From a phage: a stretch of 64,000 bases of DNA. Position numbers and translations under genes: made by a program. The DNA is taken from assembly GCA_024672275.1 (NCBI GenBank), contig GCA_024672275.1_4536.1. One strand, written 5' to 3'. The notes beneath the pieces are model-generated. The model saw only the letters and a list, made by a program, of their open reading frames with translations, had not been told where the DNA came from and did no database searches. Below, piece by piece: positions 5,382 to 63,003 of the stretch (its first letter is position 1; every line of letters begins with the position of its first letter).

Positions 5382-7457
5382 GTGGCAAAGAAAAAGGCAG
5401 CAGGTAGTTTAGCTGGAGTAGATATTGAAGTAAAGGCTCAACCAGGTAAACAGACTCTTGCAATGGATTTAATGCCAGAAGTTATGATTTATGGTGGTGC
5501 CGCTGGATGTGTTTCTGCTGAAACAGAATATCTTACAAAAGATGGTTGGAGACAGATTAGTGAATATTCTGGAGAGGATATTTACCAATACAATCCTAAG
5601 AATAAGCGTTTAGAATTGGTAACACCTTATTTTGTAGAATACGATTTAAATGGAGATAACCTATACAGAATAACAAATGGTGTAGGATTGTTCCAAGAAC
5701 TTAGTATGGAACACCGTTTTGTATTCTATAAGAAAAAGAAATCAAAGAAACATTTCGAGATTCTTGTAGGAGATCTTATTGCATTACAGCAAATAGGAAA
5801 ACCCCTGCAAGGTTATGTAGAAAATCCATTCGGTAAACGTGTTCCTTTTAACATACCTGGTAAAAAGAGCACTTACTTAAAAATACACGAGGTTATTTCA
5901 ACAGATGATAAGAAATATTGTTTTGAGACTCCAAGCAGCTATATTGTCTTTAGACGTGGCGATCACTGCTTCGTTACTGGGAATAGCGGCAAGTCTCGTC
6001 TGCTATTGCTGAAAGCTTTAAAATACGCCTACAAAGACCCTTTGTTTGGTGGAATACTTTTCCGTAAGAACACCACTGCTCACCGTAAACCAGGTGGTCT
6101 GTTTACAGAAGCAAAACGTTTGTATCTTCCTTTACAACCGCACGTAAAAGAAAGTACAATGGATATCATTTTTGAAGCCACTGGTGGTGGAACCCTAAAA
6201 TTTGACCATTTGGAAAATGATAACGTAACAGCAGAAACAAACCATCAGGGTACACAGTATTCAATGGTAGGTTTTGACGAGTTAACCCACTTCACACAAT
6301 ATGAAATGCTCTATCTTCTGGGACGTATGCGTTCAGAGTCAGAAACAAGTTTCATGTTGTGCACATGTAACCCTGACGCAGATAGTTGGGTTTTGAATTG
6401 GGTGTTACCTTATCTTGATGAGGGTGGTTATCCTAGAGAAGATATGTGTGGTAAACAAAAATATTTCATCATTGTTAACGATGAACCTGTTTTTGCTGAC
6501 ACACCTGAAGAACTGAAAGAAAAATATCCAGAAAACTGTTTCATGGAAAACCCTAATACAGGGGAGACAGTTGTTATTGAACCACAAACTTTCGTATTTA
6601 TTGGTGGGACAATATTTGATAACCCAGAACTCATTAGGCTTAACCCTAATTACTTAGCACAGCTTAAATCACAAACAGCTATCAAAAGAGCACAGCTTCT
6701 GGATGGTTGTTGGTTTGCACGTATTCAGAAAGAATCTTTCTTTCAACGTGAATGGTTACATAAAATATCTTATAAAGATGTTCCTAACAATCTTAAACTA
6801 ATGCGAGCATGGGATAAAGCTGTTTCAGTTCCTACAGAAACTTACCGTTATCCAGACTATACAACATCTGTCAAAATGGGTAAAGACCAAGATGGTAATA
6901 TCTACATCTTTGGCGACTATGATTATGATGCTGTGGATGAGAAAAGTAAAATTTTTGGAAGGTTTCGAAGACTACCTGGGGAAAGGGATAACCTGATTCT
7001 AAATCAATGTAAGATTGATGGACCAGAAGTTACAGTAGTGCTTCCTAAAGACCCATCTGGTGCTGGGACAATAGAATACACAGAGTCTGCAAAGAAACTT
7101 ATTCTAGAAGGTTTTGTTGTTAAACCAGATGCTATGCCAGGTAACAAGAAAAAGCTTCAGCGTTTTATGCCTTTTAGTAGTGCGTGTCAAAACGGTTTTG
7201 TTTATATTGTTGAAGATTCTTTCCCTAATGTGGAAACTTTAACCCACTTTTATAAAGAATTGGAATCTTTCAATGGTGAAAGATCTACAGCCACTATTAA
7301 AGATGACATTCCCGATGCTGCTGCCTCTTGTTTTAATACTCTGTCAAAAGAGAATACTTTCAAAGCAGTAGCTATCCCTACAACAACAAATGCTCCTACA
7401 GGATACAGTAGAATGAACAGCGGATTTCACCAACCGTATAGTGTCCGTAAAAGATAA
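5382..7457 (+). CDS. terL: terminase large subunit, interrupted by a mini-intein in the Walker A motif
   Basis: GTG start after AAGGAGGG; extein Walker A reconstitutes as GGAAG|SGKS across the intein; Walker B-like VGFDELTH; nuclease-domain acidic motifs (DPSGAG); size and position before portal. Confidence 0.85.
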   Translation: MAKKKAAGSLAGVDIEVKAQPGKQTLAMDLMPEVMIYGGAAGCVSAETEYLTKDGWRQISEYSGEDIYQYNPKNKRLELVTPYFVEYDLNGDNLYRITNGVGLFQELSMEHRFVFYKKKKSKKHFEILVGDLIALQQIGKPLQGYVENPFGKRVPFNIPGKKSTYLKIHEVISTDDKKYCFETPSSYIVFRRGDHCFVTGNSGKSRLLLLKALKYAYKDPLFGGILFRKNTTAHRKPGGLFTEAKRLYLPLQPHVKESTMDIIFEATGGGTLKFDHLENDNVTAETNHQGTQYSMVGFDELTHFTQYEMLYLLGRMRSESETSFMLCTCNPDADSWVLNWVLPYLDEGGYPREDMCGKQKYFIIVNDEPVFADTPEELKEKYPENCFMENPNTGETVVIEPQTFVFIGGTIFDNPELIRLNPNYLAQLKSQTAIKRAQLLDGCWFARIQKESFFQREWLHKISYKDVPNNLKLMRAWDKAVSVPTETYRYPDYTTSVKMGKDQDGNIYIFGDYDYDAVDEKSKIFGRFRRLPGERDNLILNQCKIDGPEVTVVLPKDPSGAGTIEYTESAKKLILEGFVVKPDAMPGNKKKLQRFMPFSSACQNGFVYIVEDSFPNVETLTHFYKELESFNGERSTATIKDDIPDAAASCFNTLSKENTFKAVAIPTTTNAPTGYSRMNSGFHQPYSVRKR
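5508..5984 (+). mobile_element. mini-intein (159 aa, Hint domain only) inserted in terminase P-loop
   Basis: begins Cys (CVSAETEYLTKDG, block A-like), TxxH-like SMEH, ends ...HCFVTGN followed by Ser(+1); excision restores GxxxxGK[ST]. Confidence 0.75.
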
Positions 7458-57181: not shown

Positions 57182-57703
57182 TTAACTCCCCTTTGGTAGA
57201 TAGAAACCATGCACTTTATCTCGATAAACAAGACGCATATCACGTTCCCAGTGTGTCTTTATATTCCGTTTCTTGAAATATAGAGCACCTTTAGTAACAT
57301 CTAAAACAGACCGCAATTCAGGAAAATGTTTCTCTAGATAAAGTAAACGCTCCGCTATTGCTTTTGCTTCCTGCCACTTATCTTTCTCTGTTACGTTAAA
57401 AGTTTTCGCATATGAGAATTGTCCTTTCTGGAACAAGACTCCTCTGACTGTGTTAGGGAAGTAGGTATCATTTCTTCTGTTGATTACCACATTCCCAACG
57501 GCATTCATTCCTTTTTTACCCAGACCGCGACCTTCTGCGTAAATTGCACAAGCTAATAGAATTTTATCATTATATTGCTTTGTACATTTGTGAACTACTT
57601 TAGCGGTTTTTACGTTTGCAGCTTCGGCTTTCGCCACAACAGGTGTAAATGTAAAAGCAGTTAAGGATAGTAACGCAACTGTTACAAAGTTTTTTATCAG
57701 CAA
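57182..57703 (-). CDS. secreted cell-wall hydrolase, SleB/CwlJ-like (candidate signal-peptide endolysin)
   Basis: 173 aa; TTG start with AAGGAGG; N-terminal signal peptide (LLSLTAFTFTPVVAKA); ACAIYAEGRGLGKKGMNAVGNVVINRRN matches SleB/CwlJ core. Confidence 0.65.
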   Translation of the reverse strand: MLIKNFVTVALLSLTAFTFTPVVAKAEAANVKTAKVVHKCTKQYNDKILLACAIYAEGRGLGKKGMNAVGNVVINRRNDTYFPNTVRGVLFQKGQFSYAKTFNVTEKDKWQEAKAIAERLLYLEKHFPELRSVLDVTKGALYFKKRNIKTHWERDMRLVYRDKVHGFYLPKGS

Positions 57704-57802: not shown

Positions 57803-58405
57803 TTATGGACATTCATACCATTCTTTTTTACCACCGAAGGCCATCACCACATCACAAATATCCAGACCAGCTTTACCTACACCATATGCTTTCAGCTTCC
57901 ATTCCCCATCTTCACGAACCAAGGAAGCCACGTGGCAGATTGTGTTGCCAGCTACTTCAGGAGCCAGGAAGTCAAAATCCAGAATTTCCACATTGCGCTC
58001 GGAGTCAAAGATTTTAAGCATACCTTCAGAAGCATGACCAAAACGTTTCAGACCTGTATCATCATCAATGGTCAGAACAAAGGCAATCTCTTGTGCATCA
58101 GGAGAGATTTTAGCCAGAGTAATATCAATCTGCTCCATGCTGCCAGTTCCATCACGAACATCGTCACCAGCGAAGGTAGAACGTTCAGGATCAAACTTGT
58201 TAGCATAGCAAACCAGGTGACGTGCAGACAGCATTTCAGGATTGCCAGCGGCATTGTGACGACAAACCAGTGCACTTACATCCAGATCCAGTTTAGAATC
58301 AGATTTCCAAGAGAATTCCAGGCGCAGTTCTTTCAGAGCCGGAGCAACTTTCTTCAGGGAAATTTTTTCGCTAGAGCCTTTTTTCAGGGAAATTTTATCA
58401 GTCAT
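57803..58405 (-). CDS. TerD-family protein
   Basis: 200 aa; MTDKISLKKGSSEKISLKK, DLDVSAL, AFVLTIDDD, REDGEWKLKAYGVGKAG align block-for-block with bacterial TerD. Confidence 0.75.
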   Translation of the reverse strand: MTDKISLKKGSSEKISLKKVAPALKELRLEFSWKSDSKLDLDVSALVCRHNAAGNPEMLSARHLVCYANKFDPERSTFAGDDVRDGTGSMEQIDITLAKISPDAQEIAFVLTIDDDTGLKRFGHASEGMLKIFDSERNVEILDFDFLAPEVAGNTICHVASLVREDGEWKLKAYGVGKAGLDICDVVMAFGGKKEWYECP

Positions 58406-58420: not shown

Positions 58421-58690
58421 TTATTTAAGTGTAATACCAGTTACAGTCAATTCTACTTCCAAAAGCTTAGATGTGTTTTGGATTGATACTAATTGTGCAT
58501 GATGGTTTAGTTCTACAGCAGAACAATCATTTTCCCCATCATCTACTTTTAAATAAACAATGATTTCACTAAGGTCTAAACCATTTTCGTCAAATGCATT
58601 TTCATAGACGAAAGTATCTCCTACATCCAAATCTTTAATGGTAAGGCATCGTTTATTTACTTTTTGCTCATCAATTTCGAAGTTTAACAC
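58421..58690 (-). CDS. small partner protein, paralog B of duplicated cassette
   Basis: 89 aa; LDVGDTFVYENAFDENGLD ... VELTVTGITLK; paralogous to 59712..59990. Confidence 0.5.
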   Translation of the reverse strand: MLNFEIDEQKVNKRCLTIKDLDVGDTFVYENAFDENGLDLSEIIVYLKVDDGENDCSAVELNHHAQLVSIQNTSKLLEVELTVTGITLK

Positions 58691-58919
58691 TTCTTCCTCC
58701 TAATGTTATCTCCGGTTTGTATATACGAAGAATTATAGCATTTTCATTTTCTTTGTCAACCCATTCTTCATAATCGGGCCATACATGAATCTCTACTCTA
58801 CTTACAATATCTTCCATTCGCACAGTCCCAATGAAATACTCTTTGAGACTGCGCATAATGAAAGCTTCTCTCTCGCGCCAATAATTTTCTATGACTTGAG
58901 AGGCAAGCTCGTCGATCAT
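58671..58919 (-). CDS. hypothetical protein (82 aa)
   Basis: ORF between the two cassettes. Confidence 0.4.
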   Translation of the reverse strand: MIDELASQVIENYWREREAFIMRSLKEYFIGTVRMEDIVSRVEIHVWPDYEEWVDKENENAIILRIYKPEITLGGRSVKLRN

Positions 58920-59710
58920 TTTTTAGCACCTACTTTAACAACCCACTCTCCGAACTCTTCAGATAAGAGTTTGTCATAAAGCTCTGAATCTGTCAAGTCT
59001 AAATCTTTAATGCCAATAAAACCAACATTATCATAAGCATTTGCCAGTTCTTTCAGGAAGCCGAACTTCTCATTACCAACGCCAACCATGAACCAATAAA
59101 TAGGTTTATTCTTATTCTCTTCGATAAGACGACGAACAGCACTAGGATCACCATTCTCACCATCCGTCTGGAAGAATACAACACCAGGGGTAACGTCAGC
59201 ACCTGGTTCAGATACAGCTACAACCTTTTCACGCTCTACAGATACTGTTTCAGTTTTACCAAGCAGACGATTAAAGAAGCCTTTCTTTGGAGCCTCTTCT
59301 TGTACCACTTGTTTAGTGGTAATATATTTGGTAACAGTGCCAAAATACTCATCGTAGATATCTGCCATTACAGGGGCGTAATTTGTTCCACCTCCGATAC
59401 GAACATTACGCATACATTTACCAACATAGTCATCGTAAACGTCTGCTGTTGCTGGAGTAAGCTCTTGAGAACTCGTATTGAAGGCCCACATGTCAATTTG
59501 TTCATTATCGTCGAACAGCATACCAAAAGGAAGCAGTTTACCTACAAAATCACTCACTACCCCACGAGCATATAGACCATGCATACTACCAGAAATATCT
59601 AAAGCACATGCTACACGAAGAACAATCTTACCTTCATTCAGGTTCTTATTCTTTTTCAGAGAGAAAGCAAGGTTTTCTTGACGTTTTTTCAGGCTGATTT
59701 TCTCGGACAT
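58916..59710 (-). CDS. vWA-domain protein with TerD-like N-terminal leader
   Basis: 264 aa; MIDAS-type ALDISGSM and downstream GGGTNY; N-terminus MSEKISLKKRQENLAFSLKK mirrors the TerD N-terminus. Confidence 0.6.
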   Translation of the reverse strand: MSEKISLKKRQENLAFSLKKNKNLNEGKIVLRVACALDISGSMHGLYARGVVSDFVGKLLPFGMLFDDNEQIDMWAFNTSSQELTPATADVYDDYVGKCMRNVRIGGGTNYAPVMADIYDEYFGTVTKYITTKQVVQEEAPKKGFFNRLLGKTETVSVEREKVVAVSEPGADVTPGVVFFQTDGENGDPSAVRRLIEENKNKPIYWFMVGVGNEKFGFLKELANAYDNVGFIGIKDLDLTDSELYDKLLSEEFGEWVVKVGAKK

Positions 59711-59711
59711 A

Positions 59712-59990
59712 TTATTTCTCCTTCTTAAGTGTAATGTTGGTAACTTCTAAATCTACTTCCACCATATTTGTATCTGGCGGGATGCAATGAGTATATCCTC
59801 GTTGTGCTAGTGATCCATTAATACAGATCGCACTGTTTGTGGAATTTTTAATGAACACCAAGTTACGGTAGGTATCCAACCCTGCGTCTTCATAGGCATC
59901 ATAATACATGAATGTGGCCCCTATGCCAAGATCTTCGAAAGCAATAGGTAAATCCTGACACTTTTCTTCTTGAATATTGAATCTAAACAC
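59712..59990 (-). CDS. small partner protein, paralog A of duplicated cassette
   Basis: GTG 59990..59988 with GAGGAGG upstream (ORF-track start 60056 overlaps upstream gene); LGIGATFMYYDAYEDAGLD ... VDLEVTNITLKKEK. Confidence 0.5.
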   Translation of the reverse strand: MFRFNIQEEKCQDLPIAFEDLGIGATFMYYDAYEDAGLDTYRNLVFIKNSTNSAICINGSLAQRGYTHCIPPDTNMVEVDLEVTNITLKKEK

Positions 59991-60546
59991 GCATACCTCC
60001 TCTACCAATTTTGAAGCCCAAATCGTAAGCTTCCTTAGTGATCTTTTGTAACTCACTTATAGGAAGTGTTACAAGAGGATCATCTTCTTCAATTTCCATC
60101 TTGTCATCTTCTGTTTCAATGAGAGTATTATGCACTTTGTGATAAGGGTTGTCAACACGTTTAAACTTATTCTTTTCTGTGCTGAAAAAACAATCTGGAT
60201 CTTCTTCACCATCACCCCAACCTTGGTTAGGATCTCCGTCAGATTGTTCTGTAGGGATTTCACCTGTAAAGTACTCTTCCAGCACCATAGCAATACCGTC
60301 CCTTGGATTTGAGGAATGCATTAAATCACAAACCTTACCCCAATCCATAGCCCATTCGAACCGTTCACGAACGCCATTTTCATCCTCCTTTCCAGAGAAA
60401 ACACAACCATAACTATCATAGTTGCCATACATCTCTTCAATAACAACACCGTCCTTCAAAAGAAAGAGATAACAAGGTGATCCGTCGAAAGAAGTAGAAA
60501 GGGCAGCTTTGCCCGATTCCTTACACAAAAAACTAAAACAACCCAT
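59983..60546 (-). CDS. hypothetical acidic protein (187 aa)
   Basis: ORF with RBS; Asp/Glu-rich C-terminal half. Confidence 0.45.
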   Translation of the reverse strand: MGCFSFLCKESGKAALSTSFDGSPCYLFLLKDGVVIEEMYGNYDSYGCVFSGKEDENGVRERFEWAMDWGKVCDLMHSSNPRDGIAMVLEEYFTGEIPTEQSDGDPNQGWGDGEEDPDCFFSTEKNKFKRVDNPYHKVHNTLIETEDDKMEIEEDDPLVTLPISELQKITKEAYDLGFKIGRGGMRV

Positions 60547-60944
60547 TACAAACCCTCCTTCAGATTATCAAGAGCTACAGTGGTTTCACAAAAGTCTCCA
60601 TACGTTTTATGATGTTCTAGAAAAGCTTCAGGTCCACCCCAATCATTATCTTGTGTATTCCAGCCATCAATAAAAGCATCTTCAATGATTGTGATCAGTT
60701 CCTGTCGAGTCAACGTAATGGTATCAGGTTTCTGCGTAGTTTCCACACGGAACCCTGGTTCTTCATAAAAACCTTTAGTTACAATGGACTCTAACTCTTC
60801 TGCATCACAGAGGAAGTAGCCACAAAGATAACACCAACCGTCATCATCTTTCATTACTTCATAAACTTCACCACTTGCTAACTTGATGAAAAGAGTAGGG
60901 TCTGTTACTGTAAGTTTTAAAAGAATACCTGTTGGATTATACAT
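60546..60944 (-). CDS. hypothetical protein (132 aa)
   Basis: ATG with GAGGAGGAAG RBS. Confidence 0.45.
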   Translation of the reverse strand: MYNPTGILLKLTVTDPTLFIKLASGEVYEVMKDDDGWCYLCGYFLCDAEELESIVTKGFYEEPGFRVETTQKPDTITLTRQELITIIEDAFIDGWNTQDNDWGGPEAFLEHHKTYGDFCETTVALDNLKEGL

Positions 60945-61110: not shown

Positions 61111-61307
61111 TACTCCTCCTCCTCATTGAAGTCAATATCTGCAAGGAGTTCGAATTTACGGAAGTTACGACAACCTTCATAAATATAACAATCACGACAA
61201 ACTGCTAGAACACTTGGGGGATATATGCCTCCCATCGGCGCGAATCGTTTTTCGTCATCATAACGGACACCAATGTCCTCATCAATTATATAGATACGGA
61301 TTCTCAT
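61110..61307 (-). CDS. hypothetical small Cys-containing protein (65 aa)
   Basis: ORF with start overlapping TelA-like gene stop. Confidence 0.4.
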   Translation of the reverse strand: MRIRIYIIDEDIGVRYDDEKRFAPMGGIYPPSVLAVCRDCYIYEGCRNFRKFELLADIDFNEEEE

Positions 61308-62416
61308 TTACCAAGCCCTCGTTTCACAGCAGCTACCATCCCGTCTTCCAGAGATTGAACTTCGTTAATATAATCAACACGAGCAGCACGGGCTTCCGTA
61401 TTGATGCGGTTAGTTTCTTCCAACATCTTAACCAAGTTTTCCTGATCGTGACGCAGAGTTTCAATATCCAACACTTGACGGTTAGCCAGTGCTGCTGCTT
61501 CGATCTGATTCTGTGTGGCAAGATCGCTACCCAGTTTAATTGCCAGGTTAAATTCATCAAGAACGTTATTCTGCGTCTCTGCTGCTTTCATTTGACGTAA
61601 GCTCTCGATATACATTGAGAAGTTAGCAGAGTAAGCAGGAATAACATTATTTACTATATTACGCGCAGATCGCATTAAGCTTGCAGAAACTTTTTGCATA
61701 CCTTGTACACGCGGTCCCATTTGGACACACAGTAGGCGCAATGCCTTTAAATCTGCAATACGAATCTCCAGAAGATCCAAAGTATCTCGGATCACTTGTC
61801 GCTGTTCTACTGCATCTTCTGGAAGAGCAGCCAAAGCTTGTTCTTCTTTTTCATAGGTTGCTGTTAGAAGCTGCATATCTCGGTTCAAACTTGCAGCATA
61901 TTGTCCAATAGCTTGATGTAGCTTTTCAAGATATACCAAGGAATCTTCTTCTTTGCGAATATCCATTTGAAGGTTCTTTACCAACTCTTCAATACGGTTA
62001 TTAACATTATCAAACTCCCCAAACAGGTCTTCTTTCATACCCATAACTTTTTTAATGAGTTTAGTAATACCCTTGCTTTGTTTAATAGAGTTTGGATCAA
62101 GTTGTTTTGCCTGTTTAATCAAAGCTGTGAGTCGTTCACTCATCTGATCGCCTTGATTACTACGTTGATGTTTTAACACCTCGGCATTCAAGGAACGCAA
62201 GGTTGTTCCTGCCTCTGCCCCAATCTCTTCAATCTCTTGTCGGGTCATAGAAGGCAAAACTGGAACTTCTTGCGGTGCCGCTGGTGCATAAACAGGACTG
62301 GCATCTAACACGCTTGGAGCGAATACAGATTTACTTGCATCTGTTGTTGCAGCGAATACACTCATTTCAGACTTCTTCTGACCACCAGTAGCTGCTTTTA
62401 AAAATGGACTTGTCAT
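61304..62416 (-). CDS. TelA-like (toxic anion resistance family) coiled-coil protein
   Basis: 370 aa, largely helical; size and composition fit TelA/KlaA and it sits next to TerD and vWA genes; family call is inference. Confidence 0.4.
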   Translation of the reverse strand: MTSPFLKAATGGQKKSEMSVFAATTDASKSVFAPSVLDASPVYAPAAPQEVPVLPSMTRQEIEEIGAEAGTTLRSLNAEVLKHQRSNQGDQMSERLTALIKQAKQLDPNSIKQSKGITKLIKKVMGMKEDLFGEFDNVNNRIEELVKNLQMDIRKEEDSLVYLEKLHQAIGQYAASLNRDMQLLTATYEKEEQALAALPEDAVEQRQVIRDTLDLLEIRIADLKALRLLCVQMGPRVQGMQKVSASLMRSARNIVNNVIPAYSANFSMYIESLRQMKAAETQNNVLDEFNLAIKLGSDLATQNQIEAAALANRQVLDIETLRHDQENLVKMLEETNRINTEARAARVDYINEVQSLEDGMVAAVKRGLGK

Positions 62417-63003
62417 TCTTCATTCTCCTCTTCTGCATCTCTTATATATGGTGAAACACCGTACTCTTTAGCTACTTTAACCCAATCATCCCATTTATAC
62501 AACCATAATTTTCCTTCAGTTCCTTCTTTATCTGATTTCAACCACATGTTAGGTTGCTTGCCTGGGTACATGCGATTAGGTTTACGATTATAACCTCTAA
62601 CACATCTTGTCGCAAACCTATCTACCAGAACAAGAACATATTTATATTCGTGGTTCAACGGCTCTTTGGAAGTGGCTTTAGGATTAGCCCCTAACTCTGC
62701 TGCCAGTTTTTGCCAATGAGCACCGTGTCTACTAAACTTACCCATACAACCATCAATAGCATGAGCAATTTCGTGCTTCATTGTATCCACGATCATGTCT
62801 CTTGTGGAGTTCTTATGCAAGTGCCAATTTACAACAACAATTTTATCTCGGTAGTTGCACCAACCGAAAGAGTTATTCACTTTGTTTCTAACACAAGCTT
62901 TATATCCTGCTTCATGTAACATGTTGTAGTAAACAGGAAAATCTTCTTTTATTTCCTGCATCACTTCCCACCACAAGAGTTGCAAGTCTCTCTCGGTATG
63001 CAT
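62413..63003 (-). CDS. SprT-like zinc metalloprotease domain protein
   Basis: 196 aa; HEIAHAIDG ... HGAHW matches SprT-like HExxH ... HGxxW arrangement. Confidence 0.6.
   Translation of the reverse strand: MHTERDLQLLWWEVMQEIKEDFPVYYNMLHEAGYKACVRNKVNNSFGWCNYRDKIVVVNWHLHKNSTRDMIVDTMKHEIAHAIDGCMGKFSRHGAHWQKLAAELGANPKATSKEPLNHEYKYVLVLVDRFATRCVRGYNRKPNRMYPGKQPNMWLKSDKEGTEGKLWLYKWDDWVKVAKEYGVSPYIRDAEEENEE

Follow-up and report, generated by a model that had tools for sequence, protein, structure and literature searches.

Two small genes in a 64,000-nucleotide (nt) stretch of phage DNA, hereafter the window (contig GCA_024672275.1_4536.1), raise the question of what was duplicated at their locus: a small gene on its own, or a two-gene cassette. 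The genes, here called A and B, each lie just upstream of a gene whose product starts with KISLKK, A 15 nt before a TerD-domain protein (TerD) and B 1 nt before a TerF-like protein with a von Willebrand factor A domain (vWA). An initial annotation made from the letters alone had noted this placement, correctly, and had taken it for a tandemly duplicated cassette. The ~6-kb stretch around the two small genes is 98.6-98.8% identical to many phAPEC8-group Escherichia phages (Phapecoctavirus, Stephanstirmvirinae); with coverage of at least 80% and identity of 95-99%, 65 records match it. The two genes are part of the phage's Ter-like module, which is of a kind already known, and the phage is of the phAPEC8 type. 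Within it, only the small gene was duplicated, long ago, while the vWA-TerD pair is older and is widespread without the small gene. What has not been described before is the small protein itself, a duplicated, dispensable accessory of the known phage module with a predicted beta-barrel fold.

The paralogy of A and B is well supported. BLASTP aligns them without gaps over their full length with 28/89 identities (31%, E = 3e-14), or with 32.6% identity (E = 1.4e-13) for the 92-amino acid (aa) form of B. Furthermore, the hidden Markov model (HMM) of phrog_11278 matches both in full, at residues 1-89 of A (E = 2.6e-45) and at residues 24-114 of the long open reading frame (ORF) of B (E = 5.9e-48). 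Both ORFs lie on the minus strand where the initial annotation had placed them, and each has a GTG start behind a GGAGG Shine-Dalgarno sequence. The longer ORF for B, which reaches 60056, overlaps the 187-aa gene and has no ribosome-binding site, whereas the GTG at 59990 follows GGAGG. The two motifs quoted in support of paralogy are present in both proteins; the C-terminal one is correct as given (VELTVTGITLK and VDLEVTNITLK), but in the N-terminal one B reads GATF and not GDTF. A and B both share at least ~94% identity with their phAPEC8-group counterparts, which appear in public records as the hypothetical proteins phAPEC8_00201 and phAPEC8_00204. Because B is 63% identical to its ortholog phi92 gp174 and only 32% identical to A, the duplication is older than the split between Phapecoctavirus and Justusliebigvirus. 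No third paralog was found elsewhere in the window.

Duplication of a whole cassette is a different proposal, in which an ancestral unit of small partner and KISLKK-led effector was copied in tandem and the effector then diverged into TerD and vWA. Such a history would have pointed to a new modular effector system, and parts of the locus do resemble its expected product. The two junctions lie 1300-1305 nt apart with 73-77% DNA similarity over 37-39 nt, the N-termini of TerD and vWA are identical at 8/9 positions (MTDKISLKK and MSEKISLKK, starts that the initial annotation had read correctly), and hhalign joins the two family profiles at E = 4.6e-4. However, this last match spans 20 columns only, with a probability of 33%, and the whole proteins align over no more than their first ~20 residues. 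Beyond these the two share no similarity, and their folds, a beta-sandwich for TerD and a Rossmann-like fold for vWA, are unrelated. The DNA similarity between the junctions is confined to conserved peptide segments, within which synonymous codons differ (Ser is TCC in one copy and AGC in the other). This rules out a recent DNA duplication or gene conversion and indicates that the motif is constrained at the protein level. In addition, phi92 has a single small gene ahead of its vWA-TerD pair, one gene for both partners, and the pair occurs together with the N-terminal element of vWA in bacteria and other phages that have no small gene. The cassette reading is accordingly regarded as wrong, and hardly any credence is left to it.

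A search for co-occurrence in other genomes likewise failed to bear out the proposed cassette. The small gene is absent from ~19 viral vWA-TerD loci plus the locus L017, and a scan that sampled each species by one genome found it in none of 79 bacterial vWA-TerF-like loci. Adjacent vWA and TerD genes without the small protein occur in bacterial loci, in a prophage-like region of Neobacillus, in viral contigs of jumbo-phage size and in further phage modules of the TelA-vWA-TerD-endolysin type. Since many phage modules of the same type do without the small gene, the vWA-TerD pair is independent of it. By the same token, its absence from many modules with the same TelA-vWA-TerD-endolysin order indicates that the small gene is dispensable, and its absence from many close relatives that it is no obligate partner. 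The Neobacillus example (L014; Neobacillus vireti, JBALNJ010000009.1) is a compact TerD-vWA-TerC-PRTase-like-NAMPT cluster with no small protein and no adjacent TelA. It lies in a prophage-like or mobile region that also holds an integrase, DndB and Phage_rep_O, and it represents the bacterial or mobile-element form of the module. Among loci that lack the small gene, the best candidate for a divergent family member, at 5653-5985 in L017, was rejected as not significant (E = 0.31), and the ORFs that occupy the small-gene position in L019 and L024 are unrelated to the small family.

In the genomes that do carry it, the small gene keeps close company with the pair. Every member with neighbouring genes on its contig adjoins vWA and/or TerD within the TelA-to-endolysin module; the 906-nt contig L046, too short to show the context, stands outside this count. 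The order small gene-vWA-TerD is found in phi92, L009, L010, L021 and L026, and the order vWA-small gene-TerD in L006/L022, L008, L011 and L045. Two tandem paralogs between vWA and TerD are present in L012 (1180-1725) and L013 (257-802), a layout that differs from that of the window, where a small gene precedes vWA and a second one, preceded by an 82-aa ORF, precedes TerD. The latter arrangement is shared with L002, L004, L018 and L047. Neighbour-joining places the copies that precede vWA (B-type) in a single clade, all with a K(K/E)EK tail, and the A-type copies and the more distant members all lie upstream of TerD. The genes around them are less constant. The 82-aa ORF (p82) between vWA and A occurs only in the window, L001, L002, L004 and L018, all Phapecoctavirus, with an 81-aa ORF in its slot in L047 and L048. 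The 187-aa gene stands beside the B-type gene in the window, L001, L002, phi92, L009, L018 and L026, and not in L004, L010, L021 and L047.

The fold of the small protein is predicted with confidence. An AlphaFold2 model of A built from a 14-sequence alignment (predicted local distance difference test score, pLDDT, 89.2; predicted template modelling score, pTM, 0.79) consists mostly of strands with one short helix, and describes an acidic SH3-like beta-barrel of ~90 residues. In its predicted overall fold it is like other SH3-like small barrels, such as the uL2 C-terminal domain, the C-terminal SH3-like domain of DtxR/IdeR, FeoA, EF-P domain I and Tudor/PWWP domains, with ~50-70 residues aligned. 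All family members are acidic (isoelectric point, pI, 4.3-5.5) and share 21-47% identity with one another. Searches of Pfam, NCBIfam and PADLOC returned no match for A, B, the 82-aa protein or the 187-aa protein, and a match of A to DUF5006 is noise (E = 0.029; 14 bits against a cut-off of 34).

The family is small. In a set of 5.8 billion proteins it makes up 15 clusters, and the larger clusters lie on contigs of ~150 kb. When 1.84 billion representatives were searched exhaustively with the HMM, 26 matched; ~20 of these are proteins of 54-93 aa that stand alone or are fragments. Matches to giant proteins of 1,200-4,500 aa are spurious, with scores summed over many short stretches, and the four that were checked belong to unrelated Ig-like repeat families (DUF11, Big_7, HYR, fn3). 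The one-genome-per-species scan found small-family matches only in L049, a phage contig binned in a metagenome-assembled genome (MAG). In these searches the family was found only in phages of one lineage, and always inside the Ter module. At the sequence level the window proteins do not differ from phi92 gp174 and phAPEC8 gp201/gp204, and PHROGs already groups A and B in one family. What is added to the "hypothetical protein" of phrog_11278 is a predicted fold, a rule of context, a duplication history and evidence of dispensability.

Each small protein is probably co-translated with the protein encoded downstream, judging from the spacing and the start signals. The last codons of B, AAG AAG GAG AAA, hold the Shine-Dalgarno sequence of vWA. 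The K(K/E)EK tail of the B-type proteins (window 59712-59726, minus strand) is encoded by AAGAAGGAGAAA, the same stretch that contains this signal, and the tail may therefore be kept for translation initiation rather than for protein function.

A and B are ancient paralogs, and the small gene alone was duplicated. The reading favoured here, with confidence a little better than even, builds on this and takes its product for a dispensable accessory adaptor of the Ter module. A partner role for the small protein is plausible, and the chaperone or immunity function suggested in the initial annotation is hypothetical. We infer an adaptor or regulator because the family is confined to the module despite its low internal identity, occupies two slots that both touch vWA or TerD, has been duplicated locally more than once and is translationally coupled to the downstream gene. 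In such a scheme, the small barrel would be made together with its downstream partner, would bind TerD and/or vWA or bridge them to TelA or the 187-aa protein, and would thereby tune how a membrane-proximal Ter complex assembles in the infected cell. The copies may have specialised once the gene was duplicated, one on vWA and the other on TerD. Several observations weigh against this. The small gene has frequently been lost among relatives: there is no family member in L019/L020, although their vWA is 65-68% identical to that of the window, and no small gene in L023-25, L027-30, L017 or the viral contigs L031 to L044, several of which are of jumbo-phage size. The carriers all share ancestral synteny, and adjacency could thus reflect descent rather than function. 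The HMM search found no small domain fused to TerD or vWA, and the real partner of the B-type copies could be the 187-aa gene, which tracks them imperfectly.

The same pattern would suit bystander early ORFans with an independent function, for instance in host takeover, that were inherited with the region and gained a second copy by local duplication. This explanation is possible, though clearly less probable than an adaptor. It accommodates the patchy presence, which implies repeated loss among close relatives, the common TelA-vWA-TerD-endolysin synteny of all carriers, the absence of fusions and bacterial counterparts from the searches, and the equally lineage-specific distribution of the small genes nearby (82 aa, 187 aa, 132 aa). 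It accounts less well for a family whose members, 21-47% identical, have stayed in the vWA/TerD pair amid a turnover of the flanking small genes, for its two different slots, for the further duplication in L012/L013 with both copies between vWA and TerD, and for the tight coupling to the downstream gene. A role as antagonist (inhibitor, immunity factor or decoy) is quite unlikely. Here the small protein would hold phage TerD or vWA inactive until needed, or would block host Ter/vWA proteins, possibly through binding of the acidic barrel to the basic N-termini of TerD and vWA (6-7 K/R in 20-24 residues). The opposite charges, the position of the gene directly upstream of the protein to be controlled and its dispensability would suit a regulator of this kind. 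However, lineages without the small gene keep the same basic N-termini, acidity is common among phage early proteins, and to our knowledge neither TerD nor vWA is a toxin. The PADLOC models were also unmatched by the module proteins, apart from a weak SspF match of the SprT-like protein (E = 0.0064); among the PADLOC-DB defence HMMs there was none for TerD, A, the 82-aa protein, vWA, B, the 187-aa protein or TelA.

The shared KISLKK start had been described as a leader, and for TerD this description does not hold. TerD matches PF02342 with 98.9 bits against a gathering cut-off of 25.3, and its residues 5-179 correspond to profile positions 3-177. The KISLKK...KISLKK start aligns from profile position 3 onward and makes up the opening strands of the TerD domain itself, not a separate leader. 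TerD also matches the beta-sandwich structure PDB 2KXT (E = 1.8e-29) and carries AGDDVRDGTGSMEQID. G80, D82, R84, D85 and G88 are invariant among phage TerDs, and the acidic GDxRxG...D/E loops are a putative Ca2+-binding feature. The vWA protein matches PF10138 with 130.4 bits against a cut-off of 29.4. In its metal ion-dependent adhesion site (MIDAS; D38-x-S40-x-S42, T109 and D183), D38, S42, T109 and D183 are invariant and S40 is nearly so. The AlphaFold2 model (pLDDT 89.3) predicts a MIDAS-bearing Rossmann-like vWA fold, with Foldseek matches to integrin I domains and to copine/RGLG-type vWA domains (RGLG1/2, BON1).

The situation differs for vWA in that its residues 1-30 lie outside PF10138, which begins at residue 31. 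These residues hold a twin hxLxK element whose L7, K9, L18 and K20 are invariant in 26 homologues, Bacillota proteins included. The element directly precedes the vWA-TerF-like domain in every homologue examined, which for bacteria means the loci with a readable region before the vWA domain. In bacterial TerD-vWA fusions it forms the linker, as in KIDLLKRKVTLSLEKK and LVSLAKKAQISLEK. Because the motif precedes vWA in all homologues, the bacterial fusions among them, it was not created by the duplication in the window. The model gives residues 7-20 of vWA as a helix, which makes it uncertain whether they correspond structurally to the TerD strands.

The N-termini of TerD and vWA provide what may be the more useful lead at this locus. 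In pairs of stand-alone vWA and canonical TerD, to which the comparison applies (loci L003-L051), the first hxLxK motif co-varies within genomes. The hydrophobic position (I, V or L) is the same in both proteins in 21 of 22 lineages, against ~9 expected (permutation p ~2e-5), and cognate 9-mers score 26.0 against 17.7 for non-cognate ones (p ~5e-5); both permutation tests ignore phylogeny, and independent events are fewer than 22. The motif reads ISLKK in both proteins of the window, VSLKK in both of L024 and LDLTK in both of L043, and the vWA and TerD versions are LNLNK and LNLSK in L044 and IDLTK and INLTK in the Neobacillus locus. Two bacterial loci beyond the 22 lineages have F in both proteins, with FDLQK in vWA and FNLEK in TerD in L050 (Nostoc) and FNLEK in both in L051 (Uhrbacteria). 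In bacterial loci, most vWA proteins are fusions with a divergent TerD-like domain that lacks the hxLxK start, and several TerD paralogs are present. The codon usage noted above argues against gene conversion as the source of the agreement. The co-variation is regarded as suggestive, and it predicts a direct or shared interaction of TerD and vWA. That the twin segments form a co-evolving recognition element, for TerD-vWA pairing or for common docking, and that A and B are adaptors that read it, one per partner, is an unlikely extension of this idea. If true, it would give the Ter stress/phage-exclusion complexes, long enigmatic, their first concrete rule of assembly.

The bacterial Ter system (terZABCDEF/telAB type) is made up of the membrane protein TerC, TerB and multiple TerD paralogs, often together with biosynthetic genes of the PRTase/HAD kind. 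Ter/TelA genes occur widely, in bacteria and plasmids as well as in virulent phages. The bacterial TerF-type proteins are fusions of a TerD-like and a vWA-TerF-like domain that have the same MIDAS and twin hxLxK element as the phage vWA, with TerD paralogs nearby. In contrast, the phage vWA stands alone and the element is its free N-terminus, and the small barrel accompanies none of the 79 bacterial loci. The part of the window examined (~57-63 kb) holds TelA, vWA and one TerD, and neither TerB nor PRTase was found there. TerC is annotated further upstream in phi92 (gp182), at a position that lies past the end of the window, and it also occurs in L017.

Jumbo phages, Klebsiella phage phiKp34 and Pseudomonas phage PhiPsa374 have been described as carrying Ter-like modules with TerC, TerF-type vWA, TerD and TelA, for which roles in superinfection exclusion or envelope stress have been proposed (PMC7824862, PMC8386662, PMC9796965). 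These modules have the same domain set (TelA, vWA-TerF-like, TerD) and the same early-region setting in a virulent phage as the module in the window. They differ in that no small partner is mentioned for them, whereas the window adds the phage-only beta-barrel gene, in 1-2 copies, beside vWA and TerD. In one phage lineage the vWA-TerD core has gained a dedicated small protein, predicted to be a beta-barrel, whose gene was duplicated and has been lost repeatedly. This provides a genetic handle on the phage Ter module, through the comparison of phAPEC8 (two copies), phi92 (one) and relatives with none.

All genes at the locus lie on the minus strand (Table 1). As transcribed, SprT comes first, followed by TelA, several small ORFs, the 132-aa ORF, the 187-aa ORF, B, vWA, the 82-aa ORF, A, TerD, a GC-rich hairpin and the endolysin.

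Table 1. Features of the Ter-like module in the window (positions are those of the whole stretch)
Feature	Position	Strand	Remarks
SprT-like protein	62413-63003	minus	
TelA-like protein, upstream module member	61304-62416	minus	PF05816 E = 3.2e-33; phrog_5890
187-aa protein	59983-60546	minus	phrog_14928; overlaps start of B
Small protein B, 92 aa, B-type paralog	59712-59990	minus	phrog_11278; phAPEC8 gp204 equivalent
vWA-TerF-like protein, 264 aa	58916-59710	minus	PF10138 E = 1.3e-37; intact MIDAS
N-terminal extension of vWA, residues 1-30	59621-59710	minus	twin hxLxK element, MSEKISLKK...AFSLKK; used in co-variation comparison
82-aa ORF	58671-58919	minus	phrog_22387; overlaps vWA by 4 nt and A by 20 nt
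Sigma-70-type promoter within 82-aa ORF	58732-58759	minus	consensus match 12/12
Small protein A, 89 aa, A-type	58421-58690	minus	phrog_11278; phAPEC8 gp201 equivalent
TerD-domain protein, 200 aa	57803-58405	minus	PF02342 E = 3.2e-28
N-terminal segment of TerD	58349-58405	minus	used in co-variation comparison
GC-rich hairpin just 3' of TerD stop codon	57765-57784	minus	folding energy compared with shuffles
SleB-type endolysin	57182-57703	minus	

The promoter within the 82-aa ORF, TTGACA-16 nt-TGcTATAAT with an extended -10 element, lies ~40 nt upstream of A and probably drives A and TerD. It is kept in phiWec181 as TTGACA-16-TATAAT, although the 82-aa ORF there is only 58% identical as a protein, and the vWA-TerD spacer of phi92 has a promoter-like TTGACT-17-TAAAAT. 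Sites of this kind lie at 4934-4962 in L004 and at 6068-6100 in L003. The hairpin after TerD, GAGGGGGA-GAAA-UCCCCCUC, has a folding energy of -16.9 kcal/mol (z = -3.7 against shuffles) and stands ahead of a promoter-like site for the endolysin. A terminator scan did not call it because its U-tract is weak; it is terminator-like and probably marks the end of the operon. From these consensus matches, A and TerD are probably expressed both as an early unit of their own and by read-through from upstream.

The interval between TelA and vWA is variable (59983-60944 in the window; 4375-5004 in L019). L019 lacks both B and the 187-aa gene, and it has a 68-aa gene that matches the C-terminal half of the window's 132-aa ORF. 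Within the 6-kb query, a deletion of ~200 nt is present in several phAPEC8-like phages (EF1-1, nepoznato, EP57 and UP17); that of EF1-1 falls in the TelA-vWA interval, with a 204-nt gene in place of the 132-aa ORF. EF1-1 also has an extra G in a G-run (GGGG to GGGGG; L001 ~5900-5915, equivalent to ~59920-59925 in the window) that splits B into two ORFs, either a real frameshift or a homopolymer sequencing error. The same record labels A as "RNA ligase" without supporting evidence.

Some source labels also call for caution. The vWA gene of L049 is 99% identical to that of the window, and the binning of this phage contig in a "Proteobacteria bacterium" MAG looks doubtful. Likewise, the host labels of several near-identical phAPEC8- or phi92-type records are doubtful, namely those of Campylobacter phages B15, A150 and C3, Acinetobacter phage ABPW7, Klebsiella phage ZCKP1 and Pseudomonas phage PsgM04F.

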